Source: Escherichia phage vB_Eco_mar004NP2. Taken from it: a stretch of DNA of 64,000 nt. Under the pieces are notes generated by a model, which was given only the letters and a program-made list of their open reading frames with translations, was not told the origin of the DNA and searched no databases. Shown here piece by piece: positions 3,338 to 64,000 of the stretch (positions are counted from its first letter, which is position 1; every line of letters starts with the position of its first letter). The DNA lies in sequence record OR896837.1. One strand, written 5' to 3'. The position numbers and the translations under genes are program-made.

Positions 3338-4148
3338 ATTAATTATTATTAGCGGTGCGGGTTTGAGTGTTGAAAGTGGTGTACGAGCTTTTCGTACTGA
3401 TACTGCTAGTGGTAAAGCACTGTGGGATGATTATGATCTAGAAGAAGTATGTAATATTCATGCCTTTCGTAGTAATTTTTACCATAAAACCCATATGTTT
3501 TACAACAAACGTCGTGAAGAGCTAAAAACTGTTGAACCCAATCTTGCACATTTGCGTATTGGTGAATGGTATAAACAATATCCAGGTCAGGTAGTAAACT
3601 TGACTACCAACGTTGATGACCTTATTGAGCGTGCTGGCGTTCCACATAGTGACATTCTGCACATTCACGGATATTTAAAAGAGGTTATTGTAGCTGATAG
3701 CTACAATAGTAGCAATAAACGGATTATTGATGTAGGGTACAATTCTATTGATCCAGATGATTATAAATGGGTTAAACCTAATGTAATCTTCTTTGGGGAG
3801 CATGCTCCAGCGTATGCAGAAATGTACAATATTTTTGATGGTATTACCAGTCAAGATATGATCATTGTGGTTGGTTGCTCTAACCAAGTAATTAACTTCT
3901 ACTGGGAATTATTTCCTGTTCTTAATTTGACTGCTGCGAAACTTATGGTTGTTAACTACTATGATAGTGCCCTCGCAGCGGAACCGGGCTATCAAGGTAT
4001 GACTCGTAGTGAGATGTACCAGCTGGAAGAACGTGGTATCCCTTACTGGAGTAAAGGTGCGGTAGATGCTTTCAACGACCCTGATTTTATTGCTCGTGTA
4101 GAAGCCCATTTAGAGGGTAGACCTTATGTGTCGAGAAGCAAGAAATAA
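3330..4148 (+). CDS. Sir2-family (sirtuin-like) NAD-dependent enzyme
   Basis: Start taken at ATG 3330 (MRRLIIISGAG) preceded by aggtgga; Sir2 motifs GAGLSVESGVRAFR, TTNVDDLIERAG, HIHGYL, KPNVIFFGE, VVGCSNQV read in translation; no CxxC zinc ribbon seen. Confidence 0.65.
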   Translation: MRRLIIISGAGLSVESGVRAFRTDTASGKALWDDYDLEEVCNIHAFRSNFYHKTHMFYNKRREELKTVEPNLAHLRIGEWYKQYPGQVVNLTTNVDDLIERAGVPHSDILHIHGYLKEVIVADSYNSSNKRIIDVGYNSIDPDDYKWVKPNVIFFGEHAPAYAEMYNIFDGITSQDMIIVVGCSNQVINFYWELFPVLNLTAAKLMVVNYYDSALAAEPGYQGMTRSEMYQLEERGIPYWSKGAVDAFNDPDFIARVEAHLEGRPYVSRSKK

Positions 4149-29571: not shown

Positions 29572-31625
29572 ACATACTCCTTCATTTGTCTATCAGTTAG
29601 TTCCTTATGCCAGATTCTAAAGTTTCTAACGTGCCCGAAAAGATGACGTTCGCCCCTAGTTGTTTGTCCTCCAATCCTTATAGTAGCCGTTGATTGTATG
29701 TATCTCCATTCCGTTTTTGTTTCGCTTGATATTCTGGCATTACTTACACAGCAAGTATTGTAATCACTCTTTACTCTCATTCCCATGATCATCTTTTTTA
29801 GTTTTGCATTCTCGTAAACCCTTCTGTTTGATTTACCTATATCGCAATAAGGGAAACCATCATTATCGCCTTCGGCAGATCCGAAAGCAAGAATAATAGC
29901 CGCTTCGGTTTGATGACCTCTGGTATCAAAAACACGTGGCGCTGCACTTGGCGTTATACTCCAGTTTTTATGAGCTTCCACAAGTACTGTAAACGGCAAA
30001 TTGTAAAGGTTGTTTTTTATTGGTAATGTGACCATATCGCTTGCCCGTGTTACTGGAGTCTCTTCTGTAATAATAAACGATGAAGCGCACGCCCCGCCTT
30101 CAACTTGAGGGGTAGCTACCTGTAAGTACTCTCCACCAGAATAAGTGCCAGGTGAAACAGGTGGAGCAATTTGGATCTGAGAGCTAACCATATTATCAAT
30201 AGCTTCAGATTGATATGTAACCTCGAAATAAATCCATCCATTAGATTCTTTCTCCGCTCGGGCGGTTATTCTTGCAGCCCCTACTTCCGTTTTTCTAATG
30301 GACATATCTGTTATATTAAGATATGCATCTGCTAGATAAAAATATGCGGATCCGTCATATCTTTCAAATCTTATACGACATTGTATATTAGCACTATCGC
30401 TTTTTACACGACATGATGTTGTAACATACTTTTCAGTTCCGGTAACATCGACACCTCTTCCTCCTGAAATCGCAGCGATATTCATTGCCGTATTTGTCCC
30501 AATTTTTTCGTCCTTTATTTGAAACCGCCCATAAGTAAATCCAAACTCATCAACACCACTTTCTGTTATAGTTACACTTGTTGTAGCTTCCCACTTAGAT
30601 GGCGTAAGTGAGTTAAGATGATAGTTAGTTCTTTGCCCCTCAATGAGCAAACCATCCTTTTCAAATCTAGGTTCATTAATCCCCGCAACAGTTAATACAC
30701 CTGATTTATTAATATATGTCGCAGTTGATGCACGTGTAAAGCTAACAATCTTGTCACTGGGCAGTGTTATTTCCTCATCACCGACTGTTATTTTTTTTTT
30801 ATAGTCTGGCGCAAAGCCGGTGATCATATCTAGAGAATCGTTAAACGGTATCCATACATCTGGAAGAGGTTGAATGTCGGGGGTAGAATTAGCAGCAGCT
30901 TCTGATCTATCAGCCTCAGTTTTTGAACGATCGGCTTCAGTTTTAGCAGTATTAGCACTATTAGCAGCATTAGTAGCTTGTTTTCCTGCTTCAGTAGCAG
31001 AATTAGCAGCACTAGTTGCAGAATTAGCAGCTTGGTTTTTTAGCGTGGTAGTTTCTGTTATCGCGCTATTCTTAATGCCTTGTGTGTCTGTTTTTAACTG
31101 CGCAACATCTGCCTTTATAGCTGTTGTCTCTGTTACAGCACTGTTTTTAATGGCCTGAGTATCTGATTTTAGCTGCTCAACATCTGATTTTAAGCCTTGA
31201 ATAGTAGTTACTGACTGACTAGCTGAAGTTGCGGAACTAGCTGCGTTATTCTCACTAGCTTTGGCTTTAGTCTCACTAGCTTTGGCTTTAGTCTCACTAG
31301 CTTTTGCATTAGTCTCGGATACTTTAGCAGCGGATGCAGATGTTGCAGCTTGTCTAGCGAATGTTTCTGCTTCATCCCTAAAACCTTTAGAATTGGCAGC
31401 AGACGCAGCAGCATTAGTCTCACTAATTTTAGCGTTAGTTTCGCTAATTTTTGCAGCCGCAGCAGATTTAGCAGCAGCCTCTATAGAAGATACTAACTCA
31501 TTAGCAGTAATAGAGCTAATAGAATTTCCAAGAGTTACTGTGTATCTAGGAAATTTACTAGCAGTAGCTTTAGTATCATCAATATTTAATATTTGTTGTA
31601 CAATAATCTTAGTAGTTATTGCCAT
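29568..31625 (-). CDS. L-shaped tail fibre protein (T5 pb1-like N-terminus, Ala/Ser/Thr-rich repeat shaft, distinct C-terminal domain)
   Basis: N-terminus resembles T5 pb1 as remembered; repeat shaft SETNAKASETKAKASETKAKASE; 685 aa, far shorter than T5 pb1. Confidence 0.7.
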   Translation of the reverse strand: MAITTKIIVQQILNIDDTKATASKFPRYTVTLGNSISSITANELVSSIEAAAKSAAAAKISETNAKISETNAAASAANSKGFRDEAETFARQAATSASAAKVSETNAKASETKAKASETKAKASENNAASSATSASQSVTTIQGLKSDVEQLKSDTQAIKNSAVTETTAIKADVAQLKTDTQGIKNSAITETTTLKNQAANSATSAANSATEAGKQATNAANSANTAKTEADRSKTEADRSEAAANSTPDIQPLPDVWIPFNDSLDMITGFAPDYKKKITVGDEEITLPSDKIVSFTRASTATYINKSGVLTVAGINEPRFEKDGLLIEGQRTNYHLNSLTPSKWEATTSVTITESGVDEFGFTYGRFQIKDEKIGTNTAMNIAAISGGRGVDVTGTEKYVTTSCRVKSDSANIQCRIRFERYDGSAYFYLADAYLNITDMSIRKTEVGAARITARAEKESNGWIYFEVTYQSEAIDNMVSSQIQIAPPVSPGTYSGGEYLQVATPQVEGGACASSFIITEETPVTRASDMVTLPIKNNLYNLPFTVLVEAHKNWSITPSAAPRVFDTRGHQTEAAIILAFGSAEGDNDGFPYCDIGKSNRRVYENAKLKKMIMGMRVKSDYNTCCVSNARISSETKTEWRYIQSTATIRIGGQTTRGERHLFGHVRNFRIWHKELTDRQMKEYV
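31251..31313. repeat. Three tandem 21-bp repeats inside the tail-fibre gene
   Basis: ctcactagctttggctttagt x2 plus a degenerate third copy; encodes the KASETKA heptad-like repeats. Confidence 0.7.
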
Positions 31626-37683: not shown

Positions 37684-40600
37684 TTAAGAATTTCCTAATG
37701 TTTTCAGACTAGTACCGTTCTCATTCAGAGCTAATTCCACTGCGTCTCTTAGAGCACTACTATTACTAGAAGCAAACTCTCTAAAACTTGCAGCATCCAT
37801 AGCACTAATATTCAGGATGATAGGTCTTCCTGAAGTTGAGTTAGATGAGGTTTTTAGCTCATCATTAGGCGTAGCTTTCATAGGAACCATAGGGGTAACT
37901 ACTTCTGTACCATGCTCACCCATTTGATAGCTAACCCCAGGGTACATATTACCACCTTCGGCACGCGGCACAAATGAATTAGCATTACCAATACCTTGAT
38001 CACCACGTACATAAGATAGTTCTCCAGCATTAGCAGACATAGATACATCAATGTTCTTCTGACGCTCTCCAAGAGTTAAATAACTAGTGGTATCAGCTCC
38101 AGAATCTGCAATACTTGACATACTAGAGGCAGAGGATGCCTGCGCTAATGCCAGAGCACCTGCTAATCCTGCCGCTACCATCAGAGGGATAGAGAACGGG
38201 TATGGTACAGCTGTTGCTGCCTGCATAACTGCTACTGCAGTTTGGATGATAATCCGCTTCTTAGCTGCATCTTGTTGAATCTTCAGCTTTTCAGCTTCTA
38301 GCTTCTTCAATTTAGCTTTAGATGCTTCTGATTTACCATCACGTTTCTGCTCCGCTGCGATAGCTGCATCAATAGCACTAACCTGTTGACTAGTACTATA
38401 CTGAATCATAGAAGATACAGTTTGCATGCCAGAAGCAATCAAGGAGGTAGTATCTAGGGATCCCTGAGAGAACTGAATCATAGCGTTAGTTAAGTTACCC
38501 ATACTTTGAGCCACAGCGGTTGCTTCAGAATTTAATTCAGATAGCTTAGAGATTGCTTGGTCATAAGAAGCCATTCTATTTTGCATATCAGCAAAATCTT
38601 TATCTTCTCCAGATAATCCCGTTGTAGGAGTGTACACAGCACCTACAGAGGATCCTACCTGTTGTTGCATTTGAGCATTACGTTGCGCCGTTAAAGCAGA
38701 CATTTGAGCCCTTGTCTTAGCTATTTCAGCATTCCAGCGCATTTGCTCGTTAGCATTACCTTTGGTAAGTTCCTTCATCTGAGTATAAAAATCTAACTGC
38801 ATTTCCATTTTTTGCATTTCCCCTGCCAGAGGGAACATGGAAGTTAGAGTATTTTCAAAGGCTTCTTGCCTTTTACTGGTCATTTCAGCTTGCTGATCCT
38901 GACGGAATTTCCATATTTCACGTTCAATTTGAGCTTGAGAACGTCTAGACTGTTCAGCCTCTTTCTGTTTATCAGCCTGTTTTGTATACCATTCGTACTT
39001 CTCTTTTTCAATGGTCAATTCAAGATTTAACTGTGCTAGACGATACTGAGTATCTGTCATAGTACGGTTATTTAAGAGAGCTATCTCACGATCTACGCCA
39101 AGAATTTTATCTGTGTAATCCTTGACCTTCTTCTGAGCTTCCATACCCTGATTAGTAAGTTTAAGTTTCTCCAGCTGAATTTTTTCAATTTCTTTCTCAA
39201 CAGCTTTATTTCCCTGGTTTGTTTGAAGAACACGGCGTAAAGCAGCTTCTTGCTCTTCTAACTGTTGGAGTTCTAAACGTCTACCAGCTTCCTGAGCCTT
39301 TTCCTTATCCTTAGTTTGATTATACACATCAGCTATTTTCTGTTGAACTGCTAACTGATTTTTAGTTTCATTACCAGTTAGTTTAACATACTCAGATAGA
39401 GCCTGAGATGCAGTTTTCATTTCAGACAGGGTGTTATAACCCAGGTTAAGGTTTTTAACATATTCATCGGCACTCTTACCGGTACCTAAGGATAGAGATT
39501 CTATATTTTTTATAGCATCTGCCAAAGTAGCACTAGTTTTAGCAGCAGTATCTGTATTCTGAGCAACGTTCTGTATATCATTAGCTAAGTCACTAGCCGT
39601 TTTCTTAGTCTGATTGTACGCTTTCTGCTGCTCAGTTAGTCCTTTTAATACAGTAGAGTTAAAATCGTATACAGCATCAGGATCAGTAGTATCTCTCTGT
39701 AGATTAATTTGCTTCTGAAACTCTGGACTAGCCTTTGCAGCAGCGGCACCAGCAGCTTGATACGCTGATTTCCAAGCATTGAGATTCTCTGTAGAATCCT
39801 CTACTTCCTTACCAAGTCTAGTTACTTGTAGACCCATAGCTGCAGTTTCTGCTACAAATTGCTTATTGGCCTCCGAAGCACCTGCTGCTACAAGACCAAC
39901 AGGAATACCTTCACCAACTTGACGTATAGCTAATTTTGTATAGAAATCTGCTTGTTCCATTCGTTTATCAAACTCAGATTTTAGCTTATTACGCTTATCA
40001 AGAGATTCCTTATACATATCTAGAGCTTTATTATAGCCTTCTTCAGAAGCAGCTAAACTTAAAGCAACAGCACCAACGTTGGTAGGGTCTATCTGTCTAT
40101 TAGTTTTTTCTTGGGCCCTAGCTGCTTCAGCAGATATAGAAGCCTGAGATGTATAAAATACTGTGTTGATAGCATCAATTACTGGCCCTAAATACTTAGC
40201 AGCAGCTTGTTGTATTTTTCTTAGTGCAGCATCTGCATTAGCAGCAAATTGCTCCCACGGAGTTGCACGTAGTACTTCATCTAGGTAGCCAAAACGCTTA
40301 GTAGATTCAGCAATTACCGCGTTAGCGTATGCTTGTTGCTTCTGGAAAGTGGTAAGACTATTAACATTATATGTTATACCTGTGTTTGCAGCATTTAACT
40401 GTTTAGCATAATCAGCGTATGCATCATTAAGACGGATGGTGACACCCAGCTCATCCAGAAGTTCGATTTCTTGTTTAGATACGCCCTTAATTACACGGTT
40501 AAGTGCATCAGTCATATCAATGCCAAGAACAGCAGCCGCACGACGAGCTACTAAACCAAATTTATTAAGTTGTTCGGCATCAAATCCATAAGCAGATGCT

Positions 40601-41367
40601 GAAGATGCCTGTCTCATTGCTTCCTCAAAAGAAATAGCATATCCAGCAGCTTCTTGTAGTGATCTAGCAAGGGTCTGAACAGGAGTACCTGTCTGAGTAC
40701 CTACTATAACACCAAATTTTTCTAGACGATTTAGCTGATCACCTAGTTTAAGTTGTTCAAATGCTGATTGCAAAACGAAGATGTTGGAAGCAAGAGCTGC
40801 GTACATAATAGGTAGACTACCACCGATCTTAGCCATTGCCGCAAAATCACGAGTTGCACCACGTGCTGAACCAGAAGTATTACCAATAGCTCTAGAAGCT
40901 CTACCAGCGGCACCAGCAGTATCATTAAAACCCCTAGCTGTGCCACCTAATGCTCTATTAGTATCATATAATCTATCCTGGACTTTTTCTGTTGCAGCTG
41001 CAACATCATTACCTATTGTTTTAACAGATCTAGAAACTCCATCGAATCCAATTTCTAGTTTATCTGTCACTTCAATAAGCTGGATAGCTAGGTAATCTAG
41101 TTTATCACCAATATCATTAATAGATTTGGTGATACCAGCCATACCCCTACTAGCTTGCATTTTAGTAAGACTTTTTGCTGCTCTGTCTGCTGCCCTCTCA
41201 ATGGAATAAAGAGTTCTGGGCATTTTACCTAACTGCTCATTTGTCAGTTCGGAAGCAGCAGCAGCATTTTCCAACGCATCAGATACGTTTTCAATAGACT
41301 TTGCAGTACGAGTTGCTCCCTTCTGTTTAACGTCTATTAGTAATTCTCGTATTAGCTTATCAGTCAT
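37684..41367 (-). CDS. Tail tape measure protein (T5 pb2-like)
   Basis: 1227 aa, long coiled-coil-rich protein with hydrophobic segment near the C-terminus. Confidence 0.85.
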   Translation of the reverse strand: MTDKLIRELLIDVKQKGATRTAKSIENVSDALENAAAASELTNEQLGKMPRTLYSIERAADRAAKSLTKMQASRGMAGITKSINDIGDKLDYLAIQLIEVTDKLEIGFDGVSRSVKTIGNDVAAATEKVQDRLYDTNRALGGTARGFNDTAGAAGRASRAIGNTSGSARGATRDFAAMAKIGGSLPIMYAALASNIFVLQSAFEQLKLGDQLNRLEKFGVIVGTQTGTPVQTLARSLQEAAGYAISFEEAMRQASSASAYGFDAEQLNKFGLVARRAAAVLGIDMTDALNRVIKGVSKQEIELLDELGVTIRLNDAYADYAKQLNAANTGITYNVNSLTTFQKQQAYANAVIAESTKRFGYLDEVLRATPWEQFAANADAALRKIQQAAAKYLGPVIDAINTVFYTSQASISAEAARAQEKTNRQIDPTNVGAVALSLAASEEGYNKALDMYKESLDKRNKLKSEFDKRMEQADFYTKLAIRQVGEGIPVGLVAAGASEANKQFVAETAAMGLQVTRLGKEVEDSTENLNAWKSAYQAAGAAAAKASPEFQKQINLQRDTTDPDAVYDFNSTVLKGLTEQQKAYNQTKKTASDLANDIQNVAQNTDTAAKTSATLADAIKNIESLSLGTGKSADEYVKNLNLGYNTLSEMKTASQALSEYVKLTGNETKNQLAVQQKIADVYNQTKDKEKAQEAGRRLELQQLEEQEAALRRVLQTNQGNKAVEKEIEKIQLEKLKLTNQGMEAQKKVKDYTDKILGVDREIALLNNRTMTDTQYRLAQLNLELTIEKEKYEWYTKQADKQKEAEQSRRSQAQIEREIWKFRQDQQAEMTSKRQEAFENTLTSMFPLAGEMQKMEMQLDFYTQMKELTKGNANEQMRWNAEIAKTRAQMSALTAQRNAQMQQQVGSSVGAVYTPTTGLSGEDKDFADMQNRMASYDQAISKLSELNSEATAVAQSMGNLTNAMIQFSQGSLDTTSLIASGMQTVSSMIQYSTSQQVSAIDAAIAAEQKRDGKSEASKAKLKKLEAEKLKIQQDAAKKRIIIQTAVAVMQAATAVPYPFSIPLMVAAGLAGALALAQASSASSMSSIADSGADTTSYLTLGERQKNIDVSMSANAGELSYVRGDQGIGNANSFVPRAEGGNMYPGVSYQMGEHGTEVVTPMVPMKATPNDELKTSSNSTSGRPIILNISAMDAASFREFASSNSSALRDAVELALNENGTSLKTLGNS

Positions 41368-41380
41368 GTTTTATTTTTCC

Positions 41381-41415
41381 CAATAAAAAAGGCTCTGGGC
41401 AAATCACCCAGAGCC
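41381..41415 (-). terminator. Rho-independent terminator/attenuator immediately upstream of the tape measure gene
   Basis: Stem ggctctggg / cccagagcc then TTTTTTATT on the minus strand; shares the sequence TTTTTTATTGGGAAAAATAAA with the element at 46361-46388. Confidence 0.55.
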
Positions 41416-41450
41416 AAGCCTCATCGTGGAACGCCCATTGGAGGAAACTT

Positions 41451-41819
41451 TTACCGTGCACGAGATCTAGCATGTGGCTTAACGTTAGGAATCCTTCCGT
41501 TTTGCGGTTTATGCTTCTCAGCACGTTTACGTGCAGCATCTACAGCTTTAGCATCAAATATATTGATAATGTGTAGAACAAATTCTTTCTCTATAGGATC
41601 AGTAATCCCATAAATATCAAATAAAACACCTAGAGCAGCCTTATCTTTACCTATAAAGATAGGAAAGTCACCTGGTATGAAGCAGTCAATTAGACTGTTA
41701 TAAATATTCATACTAGTAGCCACAATAGGTGGAAAGTCTTCAAGTTCAACAGGCATGGCCTTAGGATCAGGCTCTATACCCATTGATTCACAAAGTATTA
41801 AATATTGTTGTTTAGTCAT
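41451..41819 (-). CDS. Hypothetical protein (possible tail assembly chaperone)
   Basis: Position between tail tube and tape measure genes; no motif evidence. Confidence 0.45.
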   Translation of the reverse strand: MTKQQYLILCESMGIEPDPKAMPVELEDFPPIVATSMNIYNSLIDCFIPGDFPIFIGKDKAALGVLFDIYGITDPIEKEFVLHIINIFDAKAVDAARKRAEKHKPQNGRIPNVKPHARSRAR

Positions 41820-41880
41820 TTTAGATGCTGAGCTTTTAATACACTTATCTGCAAAATCAGCAACAGCATCTAGGAGTTCT

Positions 41881-42300
41881 TTACGCTTTTGGGCTACGAA
41901 AAGTGTCTAAGTGGAACACTGTCTGGTTGATCCAAGAATCAAACGCAGCAGAGTTCTGCATGAGCATTACAGCATTATCGCGGCTAAAAGGAACTTCAGT
42001 AGCAGGATCAGCATCTGTTTCAATCAGCATCAGTTTTTCAACGTCACCTACAGTCAAACCGGTCCAACCTTTAATAGCTGCGTCAACGAAGGCTTCAATG
42101 AACTTATCATCATCCTGTACCTGAATCAAAGTACCATTAACCCATTCATCGCGTTTAGCAGAAGAAATAACACGTTTAGAGGTAGCACGAGACATATAGT
42201 TAAGTTCTAATTTAAAGTTCGGCATACCTGGGTAGGAAAGAGTAATAGTACGAGTATCAAGAGTAATATCTTTTAAATTAATCATTTTTAATTTCTCCAA
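41881..42300 (-). CDS. Hypothetical protein (possible tail assembly chaperone)
   Basis: Position only. Confidence 0.45.
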   Translation of the reverse strand: MEKLKMINLKDITLDTRTITLSYPGMPNFKLELNYMSRATSKRVISSAKRDEWVNGTLIQVQDDDKFIEAFVDAAIKGWTGLTVGDVEKLMLIETDADPATEVPFSRDNAVMLMQNSAAFDSWINQTVFHLDTFRSPKA

Positions 42301-43180
42301 AGAAATCTATTCTCACTGGGTCTGAAGAAGCAGTAGGTATAATATCCCACTCAACTCTATACACATCTGAGAAATCTAGGCGTTTTGTAATACGTGCTGA
42401 AGGAAAATCTATAGAAATATTATTATTTCTTATATTTAAAGGTACATCTGTCTCCGGTTCGATATTGTAAACCATATCTCCTGCAAAACGTTTTAAGTAA
42501 TATAGAGAAATGGTTGCCGAAGCATTCATTTCAGTTACATAGGCTCTTTTATTATTATAAATTTTATTTATATCAAAAACACTCTTATCCTCTCTCCAAG
42601 AGCACTGCTGCTGGAAAGATAAAGAGGCAGAAATAAGACCGGGTAAGATGCTGCCATTAGTAGAAGCTATTACTGGGCTGTAAGACATTACTTCACCCTG
42701 TATAATAGAAGCTGCTTCTCTATAGGTAGATACTTCTGAGAATTTCCCAGACTCAATACCAACATTAAGAATTGGTATGTTCTTATCTAAAGAAAAATCT
42801 ACCGTAGATACATAACAGTTTTCAAAATATACACAGTTATTATCTTTATTTACTATATAGATATTGAACATAATAGGTTCAATATTACTACTATATAGTG
42901 GGAGTAAGAAAGTATTACCTTTTCTATCAAAACCTAACCATTCAAAGAAGTTAGCTTCAGTAAGAGTATTACTGAAATTTACTGCTAGAGAGATAGAAGA
43001 GGGGGTTTGAGCATTTATAATAGAGTCTGCATAGTTAGTTCTATGATGAACAGTCCTACGAAGAGTCTTGAATTCCTCGTAGGAAGTCTGTATATCATAG
43101 TTTGATAGGGCATCAAAATGAAATGCCCTACCATCATACTCAACTATAACTTTTGACTCTCTCATTAGAGAGTAGTACAT
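42278..43180 (-). CDS. Tail protein (possibly collar p140-like)
   Basis: 300 aa directly downstream of the tail tube gene; assignment by position. Confidence 0.45.
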   Translation of the reverse strand: MYYSLMRESKVIVEYDGRAFHFDALSNYDIQTSYEEFKTLRRTVHHRTNYADSIINAQTPSSISLAVNFSNTLTEANFFEWLGFDRKGNTFLLPLYSSNIEPIMFNIYIVNKDNNCVYFENCYVSTVDFSLDKNIPILNVGIESGKFSEVSTYREAASIIQGEVMSYSPVIASTNGSILPGLISASLSFQQQCSWREDKSVFDINKIYNNKRAYVTEMNASATISLYYLKRFAGDMVYNIEPETDVPLNIRNNNISIDFPSARITKRLDFSDVYRVEWDIIPTASSDPVRIDFFGEIKND

Positions 43181-43184
43181 TTAA

Positions 43185-44555
43185 TTAGCCACCAGAACCG
43201 TCTTTAGCTACAGCTTTCACAGTAACTTCTCCAGTCTTAGTAGTATCCGCAGTTAATAGACCAGATTCTGGATCAATTGTAGCTGCATCACCGCTAGAAA
43301 TAGACCAAGTTACAGCACTATTAGTAGCATCTGACGGAGTTACTTCAACAGACATCTGTAGAGTATTGCTATTCTCCACTGAAGTGACATTACCAGCTGA
43401 TTTAACTGTGATTGATTCAACTAGTTTTGGTGGAGTTTTAGCGCCATCTCCTGTAGCAATCAGATTAGCCACAGTGGTTTTAGTATACTTGTTAGAAAAA
43501 CCAAGATAACCTTCATCACCAGTATCCAGATCTGTAGGGATAGCTTTAAACTCTACTGAAGTACCAAGTACATCAACAGTCTCAATATTAGGAATATTAA
43601 CATGCGCCTGTTTAGCAACTAACACAGCTGCCGGACGTTCATCATCATATTCACCACCAAGGATAAGTGCAACTTCAAACTTGTTAACTACCTTAAGAGT
43701 TTTAATTAGATCTTTATATAGCTCCATAGATCCTAGAGCTTTATCATTAAGGTAAGCTGTCAGAGAACCAGTTAGTTCAAACGCACCAGTAAATGAACCG
43801 ATCGGAATATTTACACGGGACATAATATTGGGGGTTAGGTACGTAATATTGTTATTAATGGTGAAAGTACCTCCAGTAATAGGGATATCATATGCCTTAT
43901 CAGAATCCATATCCTTAATTTTCAGGATAGTCAATTTGTTCTTGATATAAGAACTCTGAATAGTCATATAAGTTTCATCATCAACACCTACAGTATCAGG
44001 ATCAAATGGTTGCTCATCCAAAGGAATAAGCTGGTTACCATTACCTGACCAAGTTACACGACCAATATCCTCAATATCAACGTTAACTTCTGCCTGGTTG
44101 ATCTGGCAAGAGTCGATGTAACTCCATGCTTTGTCAGTCAGGATGTAGATATGCAGCATTGCCAGTTCGTGGTACGCGTTATCTTTAAAGTTAACCATAA
44201 AATTGGTTTCGTTATTATGTGCTCCTGTATCACCTTTTAGGTTAAGAGCTTTACCGCTAGAAATAGCATGCCATAACATATAGTCAGGGACAATCTGTTT
44301 GTTAGTAGTTTTATCTATATATGGCAGGATATAAGTAGAGAAACTCCACTCAGCCGCGTTTAAAGAGTCATTAAAACGTTTAGAACCACGAGTTGGACGC
44401 GGACCAGCTTCATTAACAGTAATATCTGTTAAGTTACTGTCCTGACCCCAAGAAATATCATCCTGAACTAGAATCTCTTGCGTGTTGGTCTTATTATGAC
44501 CAGTCTTAACCGTAGACACGAAGATTCGAGTATTACGTAATAGTTGTAAAGACAT
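43185..44555 (-). CDS. Major tail tube protein (T5 pb6-like) with C-terminal Ig-like domain
   Basis: 456 aa; C-terminal Ig-like block (NSAVTWSISSGDAATIDPESGLLTA). Confidence 0.8.
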   Translation of the reverse strand: MSLQLLRNTRIFVSTVKTGHNKTNTQEILVQDDISWGQDSNLTDITVNEAGPRPTRGSKRFNDSLNAAEWSFSTYILPYIDKTTNKQIVPDYMLWHAISSGKALNLKGDTGAHNNETNFMVNFKDNAYHELAMLHIYILTDKAWSYIDSCQINQAEVNVDIEDIGRVTWSGNGNQLIPLDEQPFDPDTVGVDDETYMTIQSSYIKNKLTILKIKDMDSDKAYDIPITGGTFTINNNITYLTPNIMSRVNIPIGSFTGAFELTGSLTAYLNDKALGSMELYKDLIKTLKVVNKFEVALILGGEYDDERPAAVLVAKQAHVNIPNIETVDVLGTSVEFKAIPTDLDTGDEGYLGFSNKYTKTTVANLIATGDGAKTPPKLVESITVKSAGNVTSVENSNTLQMSVEVTPSDATNSAVTWSISSGDAATIDPESGLLTADTTKTGEVTVKAVAKDGSGG

Positions 44556-54975: not shown

Positions 54976-55000
54976 ATAATCTCCTATTATAAAAATGTAT

Positions 55001-55029
55001 TTGCTTTCATCCCTCTATTTTGCTATAAT
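55001..55029 (+). promoter_or_regulatory. sigma70-type promoter for the llp-like gene
   Basis: TTGCTT 55001-55006, 17-nt spacer, TATAAT 55024-55029, conserved leader aattcataaattagaaatggagag. Confidence 0.5.
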
Positions 55030-55060
55030 AAATTCATAAATTAGAAATGGAGAGATAAAT

Positions 55061-55327
55061 ATGAAAAAGTTTGTAATTGCACTAGTTGCCACAGTTATAT
55101 TATCTGGTTGTGTACCTGCTCCCAAACCATTTTGTACGGGATTTGTAAAATCTTTTGGTGGTGCGGGAGAAGAATATTACGGTCTCAAGGTTCAAAAAGT
55201 TCGTATTAAGGGAGATCGCTTTCCAGTAGTACAGCTCCGTACTAAATTTGGGTGGTGGGATCTCAGTCAGTTTGACCTTAAATATGGTGATTGTAAATTT
55301 AAACTAGAGCAATCTAATTACCTGTAA
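55061..55327 (+). CDS. llp: Lipoprotein, Llp-like (receptor-blocking superinfection-exclusion protein)
   Basis: Signal peptide with lipobox ILSGC; 88 aa; divergent from the receptor-binding protein gene. Confidence 0.65.
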   Translation: MKKFVIALVATVILSGCVPAPKPFCTGFVKSFGGAGEEYYGLKVQKVRIKGDRFPVVQLRTKFGWWDLSQFDLKYGDCKFKLEQSNYL

Positions 55328-55494
55328 TTAGTATAAAACAAAAAGACATCCAAGTAAACTAAATTTTTTATTTCTTGGATGGTATATTGGCAGAAACCAC
55401 TATGTAAGAAAAGTAGAAGTCCTTCTAGGAGTCCACAAGCACGGTTGGTTATGCACATATTTTAAAATATCACATTTATGGGAGCACGAAAGAT

Positions 55495-55623
55495 ATGTCA
55501 AACAAAAGAAATAATAGACGCGGAGAGGTGTATGAGAGTTGGATAAATAGTTTTGGGTTCGGAACTCTCCTATTCTTTATTTTCGTAGGTTTTTGGTTAG
55601 CAGCTATGGCGGGGTGGATTTAA
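55495..55623 (+). CDS. Small membrane protein (42 aa), first of four overlapping tiny genes
   Basis: Own translation MSNKRNNRRGEVYESWINSFGFGTLLFFIFVGFWLAAMAGWI; ggag 10 nt upstream; below ORF-track size cut-off. Confidence 0.3.
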   Translation: MSNKRNNRRGEVYESWINSFGFGTLLFFIFVGFWLAAMAGWI

Positions 55624-55730
55624 TGGAATGGGTAATTATTGCACTATTAGGGATTGTGATTATTGGGCAATGTATTTTAGATAATCACTTAGCTAGAATT
55701 GAAACTTTATTGCTGGAGAAACGTAAATGA
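55623..55730 (+). CDS. Small membrane protein (35 aa)
   Basis: Own translation MEWVIIALLGIVIIGQCILDNHLARIETLLLEKRK; TAATG overlap with upstream stop. Confidence 0.25.
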   Translation: MEWVIIALLGIVIIGQCILDNHLARIETLLLEKRK

Positions 55731-55921
55731 TGGAAGTGGCAGCTACATTAATAGTAATATTAATCTGGGCAATTTTCATTGTTTCTTATACCGCGTATGT
55801 TCGCCTAAAAACTCTAGAGGCCCAGGTAAAGCAGCAACAATTTGCACTAGAAAAATTAGTAGAGCTTCAACGCTGTGATAGTACCCGTATTCTGCAAATT
55901 GAGAGGGAATTAGATGTTTAG
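55727..55921 (+). CDS. Small single-pass membrane protein (64 aa)
   Basis: ORF track; N-terminal TM helix then coiled-coil-like tail; ATGA overlap with upstream gene. Confidence 0.45.
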   Translation: MMEVAATLIVILIWAIFIVSYTAYVRLKTLEAQVKQQQFALEKLVELQRCDSTRILQIERELDV

Positions 55922-56159
55922 TATTGTAATTGCTTTTATTATCGGGATACTCGCGGGAGTTTTCGGGACGACTGCGGCAATCAATAAGCATCGTAAATAT
56001 ATTGCGGGAGTGACGCGGGAGATTGCGGAAAGGGAGCGGAAGTTTGACGAGAAACGTGCGGAGTTTGAGCGGGAGTGGTCGGATGGATCTCGGGCGTCGC
56101 GGAAGAGATTCCGTGAGTTCAGACCAGAATACAGGTTTGATGACCCTTCTATGCGCTAA
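55914..56159 (+). CDS. Small single-pass membrane protein (81 aa) with Arg/Glu-rich tail
   Basis: ORF track; N-terminal TM helix; 3' end lies in the first copy of the 76-bp tandem repeat. Confidence 0.45.
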   Translation: MFSIVIAFIIGILAGVFGTTAAINKHRKYIAGVTREIAERERKFDEKRAEFEREWSDGSRASRKRFREFRPEYRFDDPSMR

Positions 56160-56264
56160 TTTGACTTTTGCCAATTTCTTTGGATTACGTGAGTTCAGAC
56201 CAGAATACAGGTTTGATGACCCTTCTATGCGCTAATTTGACTTTTGCCAATTTCTTTGGATTAC
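56113..56264. repeat. Perfect 76-bp tandem duplication (2 copies)
   Basis: 56113-56188 is identical to 56189-56264. Confidence 0.95.
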
Positions 56265-56336
56265 GTACGCGTGGGTGTGTCCAGTGGCCCCCCAGATGAG
56301 AATGAGTCTCATTACCGCCCGGTACTTAGCAGGCTA

Positions 56337-56373
56337 ATAGTCACGGCATGGTATCATTACACACCGTGACTAT
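56337..56373. terminator. Hairpin between convergent genes (possible terminator)
   Basis: 10-bp stem atagtcacgg / ccgtgactat with 17-nt loop; flanking U-tract weak. Confidence 0.3.
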
Positions 56374-56387
56374 TTCAACTTTAATTG

Positions 56388-57122
56388 TTAGGCAACTTTT
56401 AATTTCTCAATATATTGTTGAGGACTGCAACTATATTCTGCGCGTTCTTCCTCGGTCATACCTTCCCAGCATAATTTTAAACGGTCAGCTAGGAATTGAT
56501 AATCATTATCATCGTCGAGAGATTCATCAATAAAGGTTTCACCTATCAATGCCACGCCGATTGATAGAATATCATTAACGGCTTGTGCGTCCAGCGTTTT
56601 AAATCCGTATGACGCTGCCGCTGATAGCACGCCTTTATGATCATCAATCATTGTAAAATCAGCGTTAGGATATAACTGTTTAAATAATTCAAAATAATAA
56701 GATTTATATACTGCGTCTTTGCTGTGGTATATTTCGCTAACCTTATCAGCTTTAAAATATTTGTGTAGTGTATCGCGGGAAAATACGCGGATATTACTAT
56801 TACCACGACCGCGCAACCCTTGTTTACGCAAGAAATAATAGTCCGACTTACTCATCAGTCGAGCGGTGCAAATAATGTTTAAAGTATTTGCGTCATTCAT
56901 GCACTGGCGCATATATTCAACCAATGGCAATAAAGTATCTTGCATTATTAAATGGTGTTTACACGCTTCATTTTTATACTTATTTAAATCTAAATTGCCC
57001 TCGCTATCAAAGCAGGGTGCTATACGATGGAAAGAATTAATGATAGTGCCGTCTAAATCCCAAATCATGACGCGGGAAATATGCGGGAAGCTGCGGGAAA
57101 GATTCATGATAGCTTTATTCAT
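56388..57122 (-). CDS. dmp: HAD-family 5'-deoxyribonucleotidase (T5 Dmp-like)
   Basis: 244 aa; HAD motif I WDLDGTI near N-terminus; sits in a pre-early-type module with A1/A2-like genes. Confidence 0.7.
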   Translation of the reverse strand: MNKAIMNLSRSFPHISRVMIWDLDGTIINSFHRIAPCFDSEGNLDLNKYKNEACKHHLIMQDTLLPLVEYMRQCMNDANTLNIICTARLMSKSDYYFLRKQGLRGRGNSNIRVFSRDTLHKYFKADKVSEIYHSKDAVYKSYYFELFKQLYPNADFTMIDDHKGVLSAAASYGFKTLDAQAVNDILSIGVALIGETFIDESLDDDNDYQFLADRLKLCWEGMTEEERAEYSCSPQQYIEKLKVA

Positions 57123-57201
57123 TTGTTACGTTCTCCATTTAAGGGATTAGATTAATTCAGCATTACCCGCTATTTATAAGCGGGTAATAATAAATTAACT
57201 A

Positions 57202-57594
57202 TTAAAGACCATAAGCCAACGCATCGGCGATAAAACTAACATCCTCACCTGATACATGGGAACGAATCCCCGCACAAGTATATACTTTTGCAGAAATCAA
57301 TTGATCATCAAGGCAAGCGGGGCAAGGCGCGACAACTGCAAAGGCTAGACCGGATTTTACTGCGTCGATGATAATCGTTTCTTGTTTCGCCGTGTCAACA
57401 TAAACGCCTTTTGCTTTAATATGGCTAGTTAGTTTGCCTTGCATATATGCAAATGTTGTAACCTGCAAAGCGTCATTGAAATCTAGCAATTCATCAATAA
57501 CGTGCCCCGCCTCGACGTGGTAACGCTCACCATTAGAATAAACCAGAACAATTGAGGATTGAGCGCGGTCAAATGGAATATTTTGCTTTTTCAT
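57202..57594 (-). CDS. Hypothetical pre-early-module protein (130 aa)
   Basis: ORF track; PCPAC motif; conserved leader upstream. Confidence 0.5.
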   Translation of the reverse strand: MKKQNIPFDRAQSSIVLVYSNGERYHVEAGHVIDELLDFNDALQVTTFAYMQGKLTSHIKAKGVYVDTAKQETIIIDAVKSGLAFAVVAPCPACLDDQLISAKVYTCAGIRSHVSGEDVSFIADALAYGL

Positions 57595-57946: not shown

Positions 57947-59611
57947 TTACGCAAAGAATTTACCGTTTTTAAAGTCAATCAAAGTGCGCTGACCGTTTGC
58001 ATAGGTAATTAAATGCGTTTGCGTCCAGCTTGACGCGCCAACGTTGTAACCCATGTCCAGACTACCAGCTACGCCAGCGGTATACACGCCGCCATAAATG
58101 CTGGCGGTGTGAGTGTGTCCGGTGTTTAATTTGCCCAATTTCTTAAATTGTTTAGGATTGCCACGGCTGCCGTTAATGCCGTTGTGACCGTGTACGCCGC
58201 ATTCAATGCCTACAATCTTGAAAGATTGGTCAGTAGTTAGAAAAATGGCGTTAAACTCACAACCTGCAACCTTGCGCAGCGCATAATCTAGCACGTTGAA
58301 AGTATCGTCTTTTTCTGCAATAGCTCCATAAATCGCGGCATTTAGGCGGTGATATAGTTCCGCGTTTGCTGGATCGTCTTTAATGTTAGCATTACGATCA
58401 TCAAGCCAACGGGATAGCGCCAAATCGTGATTAGATTCAACAATGATTGTTTGCGAGAAATCACGTTCCATTGATTCCAGCACGCGCCCCGTATCGATAA
58501 GATCATCTAATACCTTATCACGTCCGGCGGCGTATTGTTTTGCTAGGAATACACCGGATGCGCGGTTGTGATGGTTGCGTGATGTAAAATCATGCACGTC
58601 ATGGATAAACTGATATTTAGGCTTGAGAATATCAAGCAAGCTATTTTCGCCAGCCCATGACGCAACGGCACAATCATCATCTAGTTTTTCTGCGTGAATA
58701 TCGCCGTATTGCAAGCCTAAAACATGCCCCGATGTCTCATAGCATCCGGCAGGAGTAGCGCACACATTCAGATCATAAAATACCCCGCTTTCGTCCATCG
58801 TTTCGAGCTGGCGTACAAAAAATTCCCCGTCCTCGTCGAACTCGACAATTAGCGCACCGAAGTTATGCAGCGCCTCGGCCTTTTGTCCTGCTTTCTGCTG
58901 AATGTAGTTTTTGAGCGTTGCCGTTCCGGTTGAGTACATACGGCGCACTACTTCACCTTTTAAAGCTGGCACGCTTTCAGCGGTAATTTTAGCGTGACCA
59001 ATTGCCAGACCTTCCAGATTAAGCGCCGTTGCAGTTTCAGCGAATCCAGAAAGCGGATAATCTGCGGTTGGCAAAACGTTAATTTCAGCCATGAAAGCAA
59101 AACGGCGGTTATTTAAAAACACGTTTTTATTGCAGATATATTTGTCAAATGCGGAATCATATTTTATTCCTTCTGCACCCTCGCCATTTTGAAAACCGTT
59201 TTTGTTATAAATAAACTTGCTAACCAGCAAATCAGCGCCGATATATTTAGCAAATTGCTCCAATGAGGCTAAAAAGTTTTTATGCGGGAAAGTATTATTC
59301 TGAATCGACGTAATAATAAAGCGTTTACCCTGCTTTACTTCCCATTGCTCAACCGTGCTAGAAACAATCCCCGCCGCTTCTGGACGCTCATCGTTTTTAA
59401 TGGCTTTTGCTACTTTCGCCGCTTTCGGTTTAGCTGGTTTATTTGCTTCCAACCAGTCGCAGATAGCGGTCGAGTGTTTTGTTGTATCGTAGACCGCTTT
59501 TGATATATCGTCGCAGACCTCCAGTTTAGTAGCGCGCAGACGTTTACCATAGAAATTAAAGTCAGCGGCCATTTTCAGGATAACGGTTTGTTTTTCTGTG
59601 GAAATAATCAT
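57947..59611 (-). CDS. A1: A1-like pre-early protein (metallophosphoesterase-type nuclease-like)
   Basis: 554 aa; calcineurin-like motifs GDIHAEKLDD, VESNHD, GHTHTA; size close to T5 A1 from memory. Confidence 0.7.
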   Translation of the reverse strand: MIISTEKQTVILKMAADFNFYGKRLRATKLEVCDDISKAVYDTTKHSTAICDWLEANKPAKPKAAKVAKAIKNDERPEAAGIVSSTVEQWEVKQGKRFIITSIQNNTFPHKNFLASLEQFAKYIGADLLVSKFIYNKNGFQNGEGAEGIKYDSAFDKYICNKNVFLNNRRFAFMAEINVLPTADYPLSGFAETATALNLEGLAIGHAKITAESVPALKGEVVRRMYSTGTATLKNYIQQKAGQKAEALHNFGALIVEFDEDGEFFVRQLETMDESGVFYDLNVCATPAGCYETSGHVLGLQYGDIHAEKLDDDCAVASWAGENSLLDILKPKYQFIHDVHDFTSRNHHNRASGVFLAKQYAAGRDKVLDDLIDTGRVLESMERDFSQTIIVESNHDLALSRWLDDRNANIKDDPANAELYHRLNAAIYGAIAEKDDTFNVLDYALRKVAGCEFNAIFLTTDQSFKIVGIECGVHGHNGINGSRGNPKQFKKLGKLNTGHTHTASIYGGVYTAGVAGSLDMGYNVGASSWTQTHLITYANGQRTLIDFKNGKFFA

Positions 59612-63956: not shown

Positions 63957-64000
63957 ATGGTTGCTTATTCTTCTGCTAGTCATCTGTTTACCGCGCAAGG
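63957..64000 (+). CDS. Hypothetical protein, N-terminal fragment (continues beyond window end)
   Basis: ATG 63957 preceded by ggagg at 6-nt spacing; only 14 codons in window. Confidence 0.35.
   Translation, partial: MVAYSSASHLFTAQ

Follow-up and report, generated by a model that had tools for sequence, protein, structure and literature searches.

Background

In phages T4, T7 and lambda, tandem duplications and deletions arise between short direct repeats, through replication slippage or illegitimate recombination. The tandem duplication described here resembles these events in that its copies lie head to tail, its bounding repeats are imperfect, its junction is hybrid and its state is derived. 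It does not differ from them in kind; what is particular to it is its location, 12 nt from the start of a T5-type terminal repeat and at a mosaic breakpoint.

On the current view, 3' extension from staggered nicks regenerates direct terminal repeats (PMC5557969), and the mechanism by which T5 forms its ends is poorly understood (PMC13595956). A perfect repeat may also come from the assembly of a genome: artefactual 127-bp repeats left by SPAdes are documented, together with "terminal repeats" of 77 or 55 bp (PMC9331655).

Results and discussion

Anatomy of the duplication and the gene that carries it

The window, by which we mean the whole stretch of 64,000 nucleotides that was analysed, belongs to the genome of a Tequintavirus. 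Tandem Repeats Finder (TRF), applied to this 64-kb window, returned a tandem array at 56107-56266 with a period of 76, 2.1 copies and a score of 313, which is the sole long-period repeat that it found within the window, and a separate repeat search of the window also returned the two 76-nt copies. A perfect repeat of 76 nt in 64 kb cannot arise by chance. The initial annotation, made from the letters of the window, had given 56113-56188 and 56189-56264 as identical, and direct comparison confirms this: the maximal exact register, in which every nucleotide i equals the nucleotide i+76, extends from i=56112 to i=56190, that is over 79 nt. To the left of this run of identity there is a single mismatch (C at 56111, A at 56187), after which GATT matches again. 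We place copy 1 at 56112-56187 and copy 2 at 56188-56263, both on the plus strand, head to tail and with no spacer between them.

The unit is bounded by two related octanucleotides. GATTCCGT stands at 56107-56114; it is ancestral, and in relatives it is where conservation ends before a mosaic breakpoint. GATTACGT is found at 56183 and again at 56259, and the downstream occurrence (56259-56266) is the one that belongs to the ancestral sequence. The middle repeat, at 56183-56190, covers the new junction and is a hybrid, since it consists of GATTA, which is of the downstream type, followed by the CGT which it has in common with the upstream repeat, and is continued by GAG as the upstream repeat is. 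The sequence across the junction between the two copies is TTTCTTTGGATTACGTGAGTTCAGACC. Read in this way, the sequence puts the crossover within CGT.

The gene concerned (55914-56159, plus strand) encodes an 81-aa single-pass membrane protein, which we identified as the homologue of T5.162 from the list of open reading frames, from PHROGs (phrog_6447, E=2.6e-47) and from the annotations of T5 and of Salmonella phage SPLA5b. With this gene the unique late DNA ends, and no other gene lies between it and the right terminal repeat. That the unit consists of the last 15 codons of this gene and of its 3' flank had been noticed from the start, and it holds: codon 67 begins at 56112, and in copy 1 codons 67-81 are followed by the TAA stop codon at 56157-56159 and by 28 nt of 3' flank. 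Despite the duplication the gene is intact: copy 1 completes it, and the identical copy 2 is untranslated and non-coding, and lengthens the 3' untranslated region. On the 3' side of the gene and on the opposite strand there follow dmp, for a deoxynucleoside-5'-monophosphatase (56388-57122, minus strand), which is the first gene of the terminal repeat and is convergent with the membrane-protein gene, and then the A1 homologue (57947-59611, minus strand). The first was assigned from the list of open reading frames and the annotations of relatives, the second from the same list and annotation.

Position of the terminal-repeat boundary

Position 1 of T5 (TGTCCACTGCC) aligns to position 56278 of the window, and so does the start of the right repeat as it is annotated in two independent records of T5 (NC_005859, at 111532; AY587007, at 111614). 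The boundary of phage SIA3lw, whose record has been re-organised with PhageTerm, falls at 56279. One contig (L032) ends exactly at the base before 56278 and another (L013) ends 3 nt later, and the records of KKP_3831, vB_EcoS_I14 and 8sent65 have a terminus no more than 1 nt away from the boundary. Some annotations are looser, that of Kenya-K16 corresponding to 56298 and that of chee24 to 56372. On the basis of homology to T5 position 1, we thus take the terminal repeat, with its pre-early region, to start at 56278, to run to the end of the window at 64000 and to continue past it.

The duplication had been proposed to sit where unique late DNA meets the terminal repeat, and this part of the proposal stands: T5 position 1 is 56278, and the two T5 records, SIA3lw and several record ends support this placing of the boundary. 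The array ends at 56266, so that 11 nt (56267-56277) separate it from the start of the repeat. These 11 nt, together with the conserved GGTG/TGTCCAGTGG (the slash marking the boundary), are single-copy and unchanged in the window.

Inside the repeat, 58 nt from its start and outside the duplication, a hairpin with an 11-bp stem is predicted at 56336-56374 (fold z-scores -4.1 and -4.8). In position it corresponds to a putative rho-independent terminator annotated in T5 (AY587007). A strong hairpin about 60-70 nt inside the repeat, with z from -4 to -7, occurs both in genomes of the window type and in those of the T5 type (in T5, 69-107 of locus L011); its position is the same and its sequence is wholly different.

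A single copy in relatives

The region of the window is matched by 446 records of T5-like phages (Tequintavirus and relatives). Among the records examined the closest is that of SPLA5b, which is about 99.5% identical over the whole window with a few mosaic segments; no record in the phage collection reaches full identity with it. Locally, four records (SPLA5b, PMBT29, mar004NP2 and Baret) share 99.8-99.9% of their sequence with the window, and the span which takes 1601 bp in the window takes 1525 bp in them. Alignment gives one copy of the unit in SPLA5b, SIA3lw, chee24, Kenya-K16, Kenya-K15, NBSal005 and T5. In SPLA5b and in the other close relatives aligned, GATTCCGT and GATTACGT occur once each, 76 nt apart.

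Searches of larger collections agree with the alignments. The 89 nt from the start of the unit to the boundary occur once per record among the matches listed (133 hits), as does the T5 allele of this stretch among the matches listed for it (100 hits). An 81-mer specific to the junction between the copies is covered in none of the 133 matching phage records of INPHARED, and a 33-mer of the junction has no exact match in IMG/VR, in GTDB genomes or in JGI metagenomes. In nine of the records listed, from seven distinct phages, the single copy shows 100% identity to both copies of the window. Four records matched in two places; two of these are Kenya-K44, by an oddity of the record, and FGS029, by the insertion of an HNH gene. 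Apart from these two, the related records that were inspected all have one copy.

The duplication is a derived state, most likely acquired on the terminal branch of this isolate. It had been suggested at the outset that such a duplication must be either very recent or an artefact of assembly, and the single copy in relatives that are 99.8-99.9% identical bears this out.

The oddity of the Kenya-K44 record (OQ291036.1) is of another nature. A segment of 59 nt, GACTTTTGCC...CCCCAGAT, is missing from the junction of the unique DNA with the right repeat (about 650 in locus L036; 255-314 in locus L038) and is found instead after the end of the right direct terminal repeat, at 114955-115013. This displacement looks like an error made in the construction of the record.

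Probable slippage at microhomology

We think it probable that the duplication is a genuine and very recent one, produced on the terminal branch by a slip or an unequal exchange at microhomology; both this mechanism and the presence of the duplication in virion DNA are inferred. In the ancestor the imperfect direct repeats GATTCCGT and GATTACGT, of 8 nt each, lay 76 nt apart, and slipped-strand mispairing or unequal exchange between them would have doubled the 76-nt unit. A slip within CGT would leave at the new junction precisely a hybrid repeat GATTA/CGT. The locus displays what is expected of a slipped-strand duplication: there is no spacer, the bounding direct repeats exist in the ancestor, the junction is hybrid and the state is derived.

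How often flanks of this quality would accompany a random join can be estimated. If any match of 7 nucleotides out of 8 is admitted, an extended statistic that was defined after the data were seen, the probability is P=0.005, and for the pattern actually present it is P=0.0012; the 3-nt exact microhomology alone is found by chance in 5.6% of random joins. Taken together, the microhomology, the hybrid middle repeat and the even period favour a real event over a join of k-mers. A perfect direct repeat of 76 nt should be readily lost in a recombination-proficient phage, which fits a very recent origin. In sum, the duplication is probably real and an ordinary event of a known kind; possibly it is a finishing error instead.

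A possible assembly or finishing artefact

The explanation that comes second, and which we regard as distinctly less probable, is that the duplication was created during assembly or finishing. It could be the untrimmed end overlap of a circularised contig (with k-1 = 76 for k=77), brought into the interior by a re-orientation of the sequence, or a cut-and-paste slip made when a second copy of the terminal repeat was stitched to the unique region. Some de Bruijn assemblers do leave overlaps of k-1, and 76 is the length that such an overlap would have with the widely used k of 77. The perfect identity of the copies and their presence in one genome only are also what an artefact would give. Furthermore, submitters stitch records at the junction of unique DNA and repeat, and the misplaced 59 nt of Kenya-K44 come from this very junction, which indicates that mis-stitching does occur here.

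The record of SIA3lw (PP094244.1) provides a control. Within its annotated terminal repeat, at a distance of 1265 nt from the boundary, it has a perfect tandem duplication of 127 bp (3570-3823 in locus L002), with a period of 127, a run of identity of exactly 127 and no microhomology at all. According to the paper on this phage, SPAdes was used at default settings on 2x250 reads, and the genome was then re-organised with PhageTerm. This repeat is almost certainly an untrimmed SPAdes overlap of k=127 which the re-organisation with PhageTerm carried inside the sequence. The duplication of the window is like it in being perfect, in occurring in a single record and in belonging to a type of genome that is routinely re-oriented with PhageTerm. 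It differs in that its period is even and that it has an exact microhomology of 3 nt, extended to 7 of 8, where SIA3lw has none.

The values of k used by SPAdes are odd, and the period of 76 is even. The overlap that SPAdes leaves is also equal to k, not to k-1, as can be seen in phage Salten, where SPAdes at k=77 left 77 nt too many in the contig (110,076 nt, as against 109,999). A SPAdes overlap with k=77 is therefore ruled out as the cause, as the period would then be 77. More generally, the period of the window is none of the odd values of k such as 55, 77, 99 or 127, and its flanks are alike beyond chance. The 7-of-8 microhomology of these flanks would have no reason to be present at an arbitrary join (P=0.001-0.005). 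Nor does the unit abut the boundary, 11 nt lying between the two, and a de Bruijn assembler cannot invent the k-mer of the junction, so that a join made after assembly would be required. For other records of this kind, a real slip can be told from a join of k-mers by comparing the period with k and by looking for microhomology at the junction. The duplication matters little in itself, and the record warrants a check against the reads, or trimming, before it is used.

A conserved block and a recombination hot spot before the boundary

The last bases of the unique DNA form a conserved non-coding block of 49 nt (56229-56277, plus strand), GCGCTAA...TTGCCAAATTTC...GATTAC...GGTG/, which ends at the last unique base before the repeat. 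In an alignment of 32 loci, comprising 28 distinct sequences, the mean pairwise identity is 0.77 for the block, compared with 0.56 in the 3' part of the gene upstream and 0.60 in the 50 nt with which the repeat begins. The block alone still matches in phages where the upstream gene or cassette is unrelated. The duplication copied 38 of its 49 nt, up to GATTACGT, and left out the last 11 nt and the boundary; the extra partial copy (GCGCTAA...GATTACGT) is at 56153-56190, on the plus strand. The 49-nt block is a candidate cis-element for the formation of the left end.

Upstream of the block the relatives are mosaic. In 7 of the 23 IMG/VR loci retrieved, nucleotide homology to the gene of the window breaks off at 56113/4, where the duplicated unit has its left edge, and is found again from GCGCTAA onwards. 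The homologue of T5.162 has two alternative C-terminal tails of 14 aa, EFRPEYRFDDPSMR and MSESGDKPVDRRSS. In relatives, the slot that separates codon 67 from the GCGCTAA block is filled by genes for HNH_3 endonucleases, of three types, or by an open reading frame of 67-71 aa (loci L023-L034, at about 1665-2260). In FGS029 (PP429240; 794-1330 in locus L037) an HNH gene lies between two diverged copies of the block. The free-standing HNH homing-endonuclease cassettes of T5-like phages occupy a slot which begins at the left edge of the unit duplicated in the window; the window differs in that it has no HNH gene here and that the DNA gained is self-derived and identical, not a cassette.

To judge from these comparisons, the final 170 nt of unique late DNA, in which the duplication lies, are a hot spot of recombination and insertion in T5-like phages. 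This location in a hot spot weakens the case for saying that the closeness of the duplication to the start of the repeat needs a special explanation. The conserved block before the boundary and the HNH hot spot are more useful by-products of this analysis than the duplication itself.

Relation to end formation and possible function

For a site taken at random, the probability of lying so close to the repeat boundary is about 0.0005-0.004. A generic slip would seem not to explain this closeness unless the argument of the hot spot is accepted. The duplication could also be the repair scar of a site-specific break, due either to a terminase cut or nick at the start of the repeat, 12 nt away, or to a cut by the homing HNH endonuclease of a co-infecting relative with a cassette in this slot, the broken DNA having been annealed at the nearest microhomology. 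We hold this to be rather improbable. The duplication does recall the processing of concatemer junctions of the T7/T5 type, being situated 11-12 nt upstream of the expected cut or nick of the left end and on the side of the 3' end which would prime the synthesis of the repeat. It departs from it in that the boundary of the window is unchanged and single-copy, and in that nothing of the kind recurs in other T5-like genomes: TRF detected no other duplication at the boundary in 33 related T5-like loci. Of the initial suggestion of a link to the repeat boundary or to a concatemer junction, the position has therefore been upheld while the link itself has not, as the boundary is not duplicated, the event does not recur and its anatomy is that of a generic slip. 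If the repair-scar reading were nevertheless true, the window would contain a natural case in which most of a conserved 49-nt element is present twice, and this element could be the packaging or cleavage signal of the T5 left end. A natural variant in which this block is partly doubled is a possible probe for T5 end formation.

Two comparisons with T5 gave little. The motif common to the left and right repeat boundaries of T5 is AAATTTC alone, at differing offsets, and the GCGC of the unit (TATGCGCTAA) does not match the T5 nick consensus R/GCGCRGG (PMC3517423) on either strand.

It is very improbable that a real duplication was kept for its use, in which case a doubled cis-element before the boundary, either a terminase or small-terminase site or an RNA signal of the 3' end, would alter packaging or expression. 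It is true that the 49-nt block is better conserved than its flanks and persists behind different upstream genes and cassettes, that the duplication takes in 38 nt of it, and that FGS029 also has two copies of the block, albeit diverged. Against this, the block is single-copy in the other related records inspected, with the exceptions of FGS029, where the copies flank the HNH gene, and of the displaced segment of Kenya-K44; the duplication includes neither the cut site nor the final 11 nt of the block; and the left and right boundaries of T5 have no motif in common beyond AAATTTC. The unit contains no promoter, terminator or structure: a scan of 55000-57300 gave no sigma-70-like promoter and no intrinsic terminator in the unit, and no excess over shuffled sequences. 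The DNA fold of the unit with the boundary has z=+0.57, and hence shows no structure which would favour slippage either. Rfam at E<=1 has no match in the unit, the two sub-threshold hits outside it being chance ones. Lastly, nothing in the zero divergence of the copies or in their presence on a single terminal branch points to retention over time.

The duplication affects neither the gene nor the boundary motif, and it leaves the downstream hairpin and dmp as they were. We regard it as most likely a neutral and unstable passenger, which adds 76 nt of 3' untranslated sequence; its neutrality is inferred. A preprint on the experimental evolution of a Tequintavirus reports no duplications.

Other features of the window

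Three further features of the window may be mentioned. At 57072-57103, in the 5' part of dmp, an 11-nt repeat, GCGGGAAAGAT, is present three times, and it is kept in most of the T5-like loci scanned. At 30945-31455 there are arrays of 21-nt (7-codon) repeats in the gene of the long tail fibre (pb1-like). The window is shorter than SPLA5b by about 339 nt in this interval, which points to a variation of the number of repeats in the coiled-coil part of the fibre. Finally, from the major tail protein to the tape-measure protein (38927-43199), the identity of the window to SPLA5b is 94%, whereas its identity to phage OSYSP is 98.7%. This means that the genome of the window is a mosaic of close relatives.
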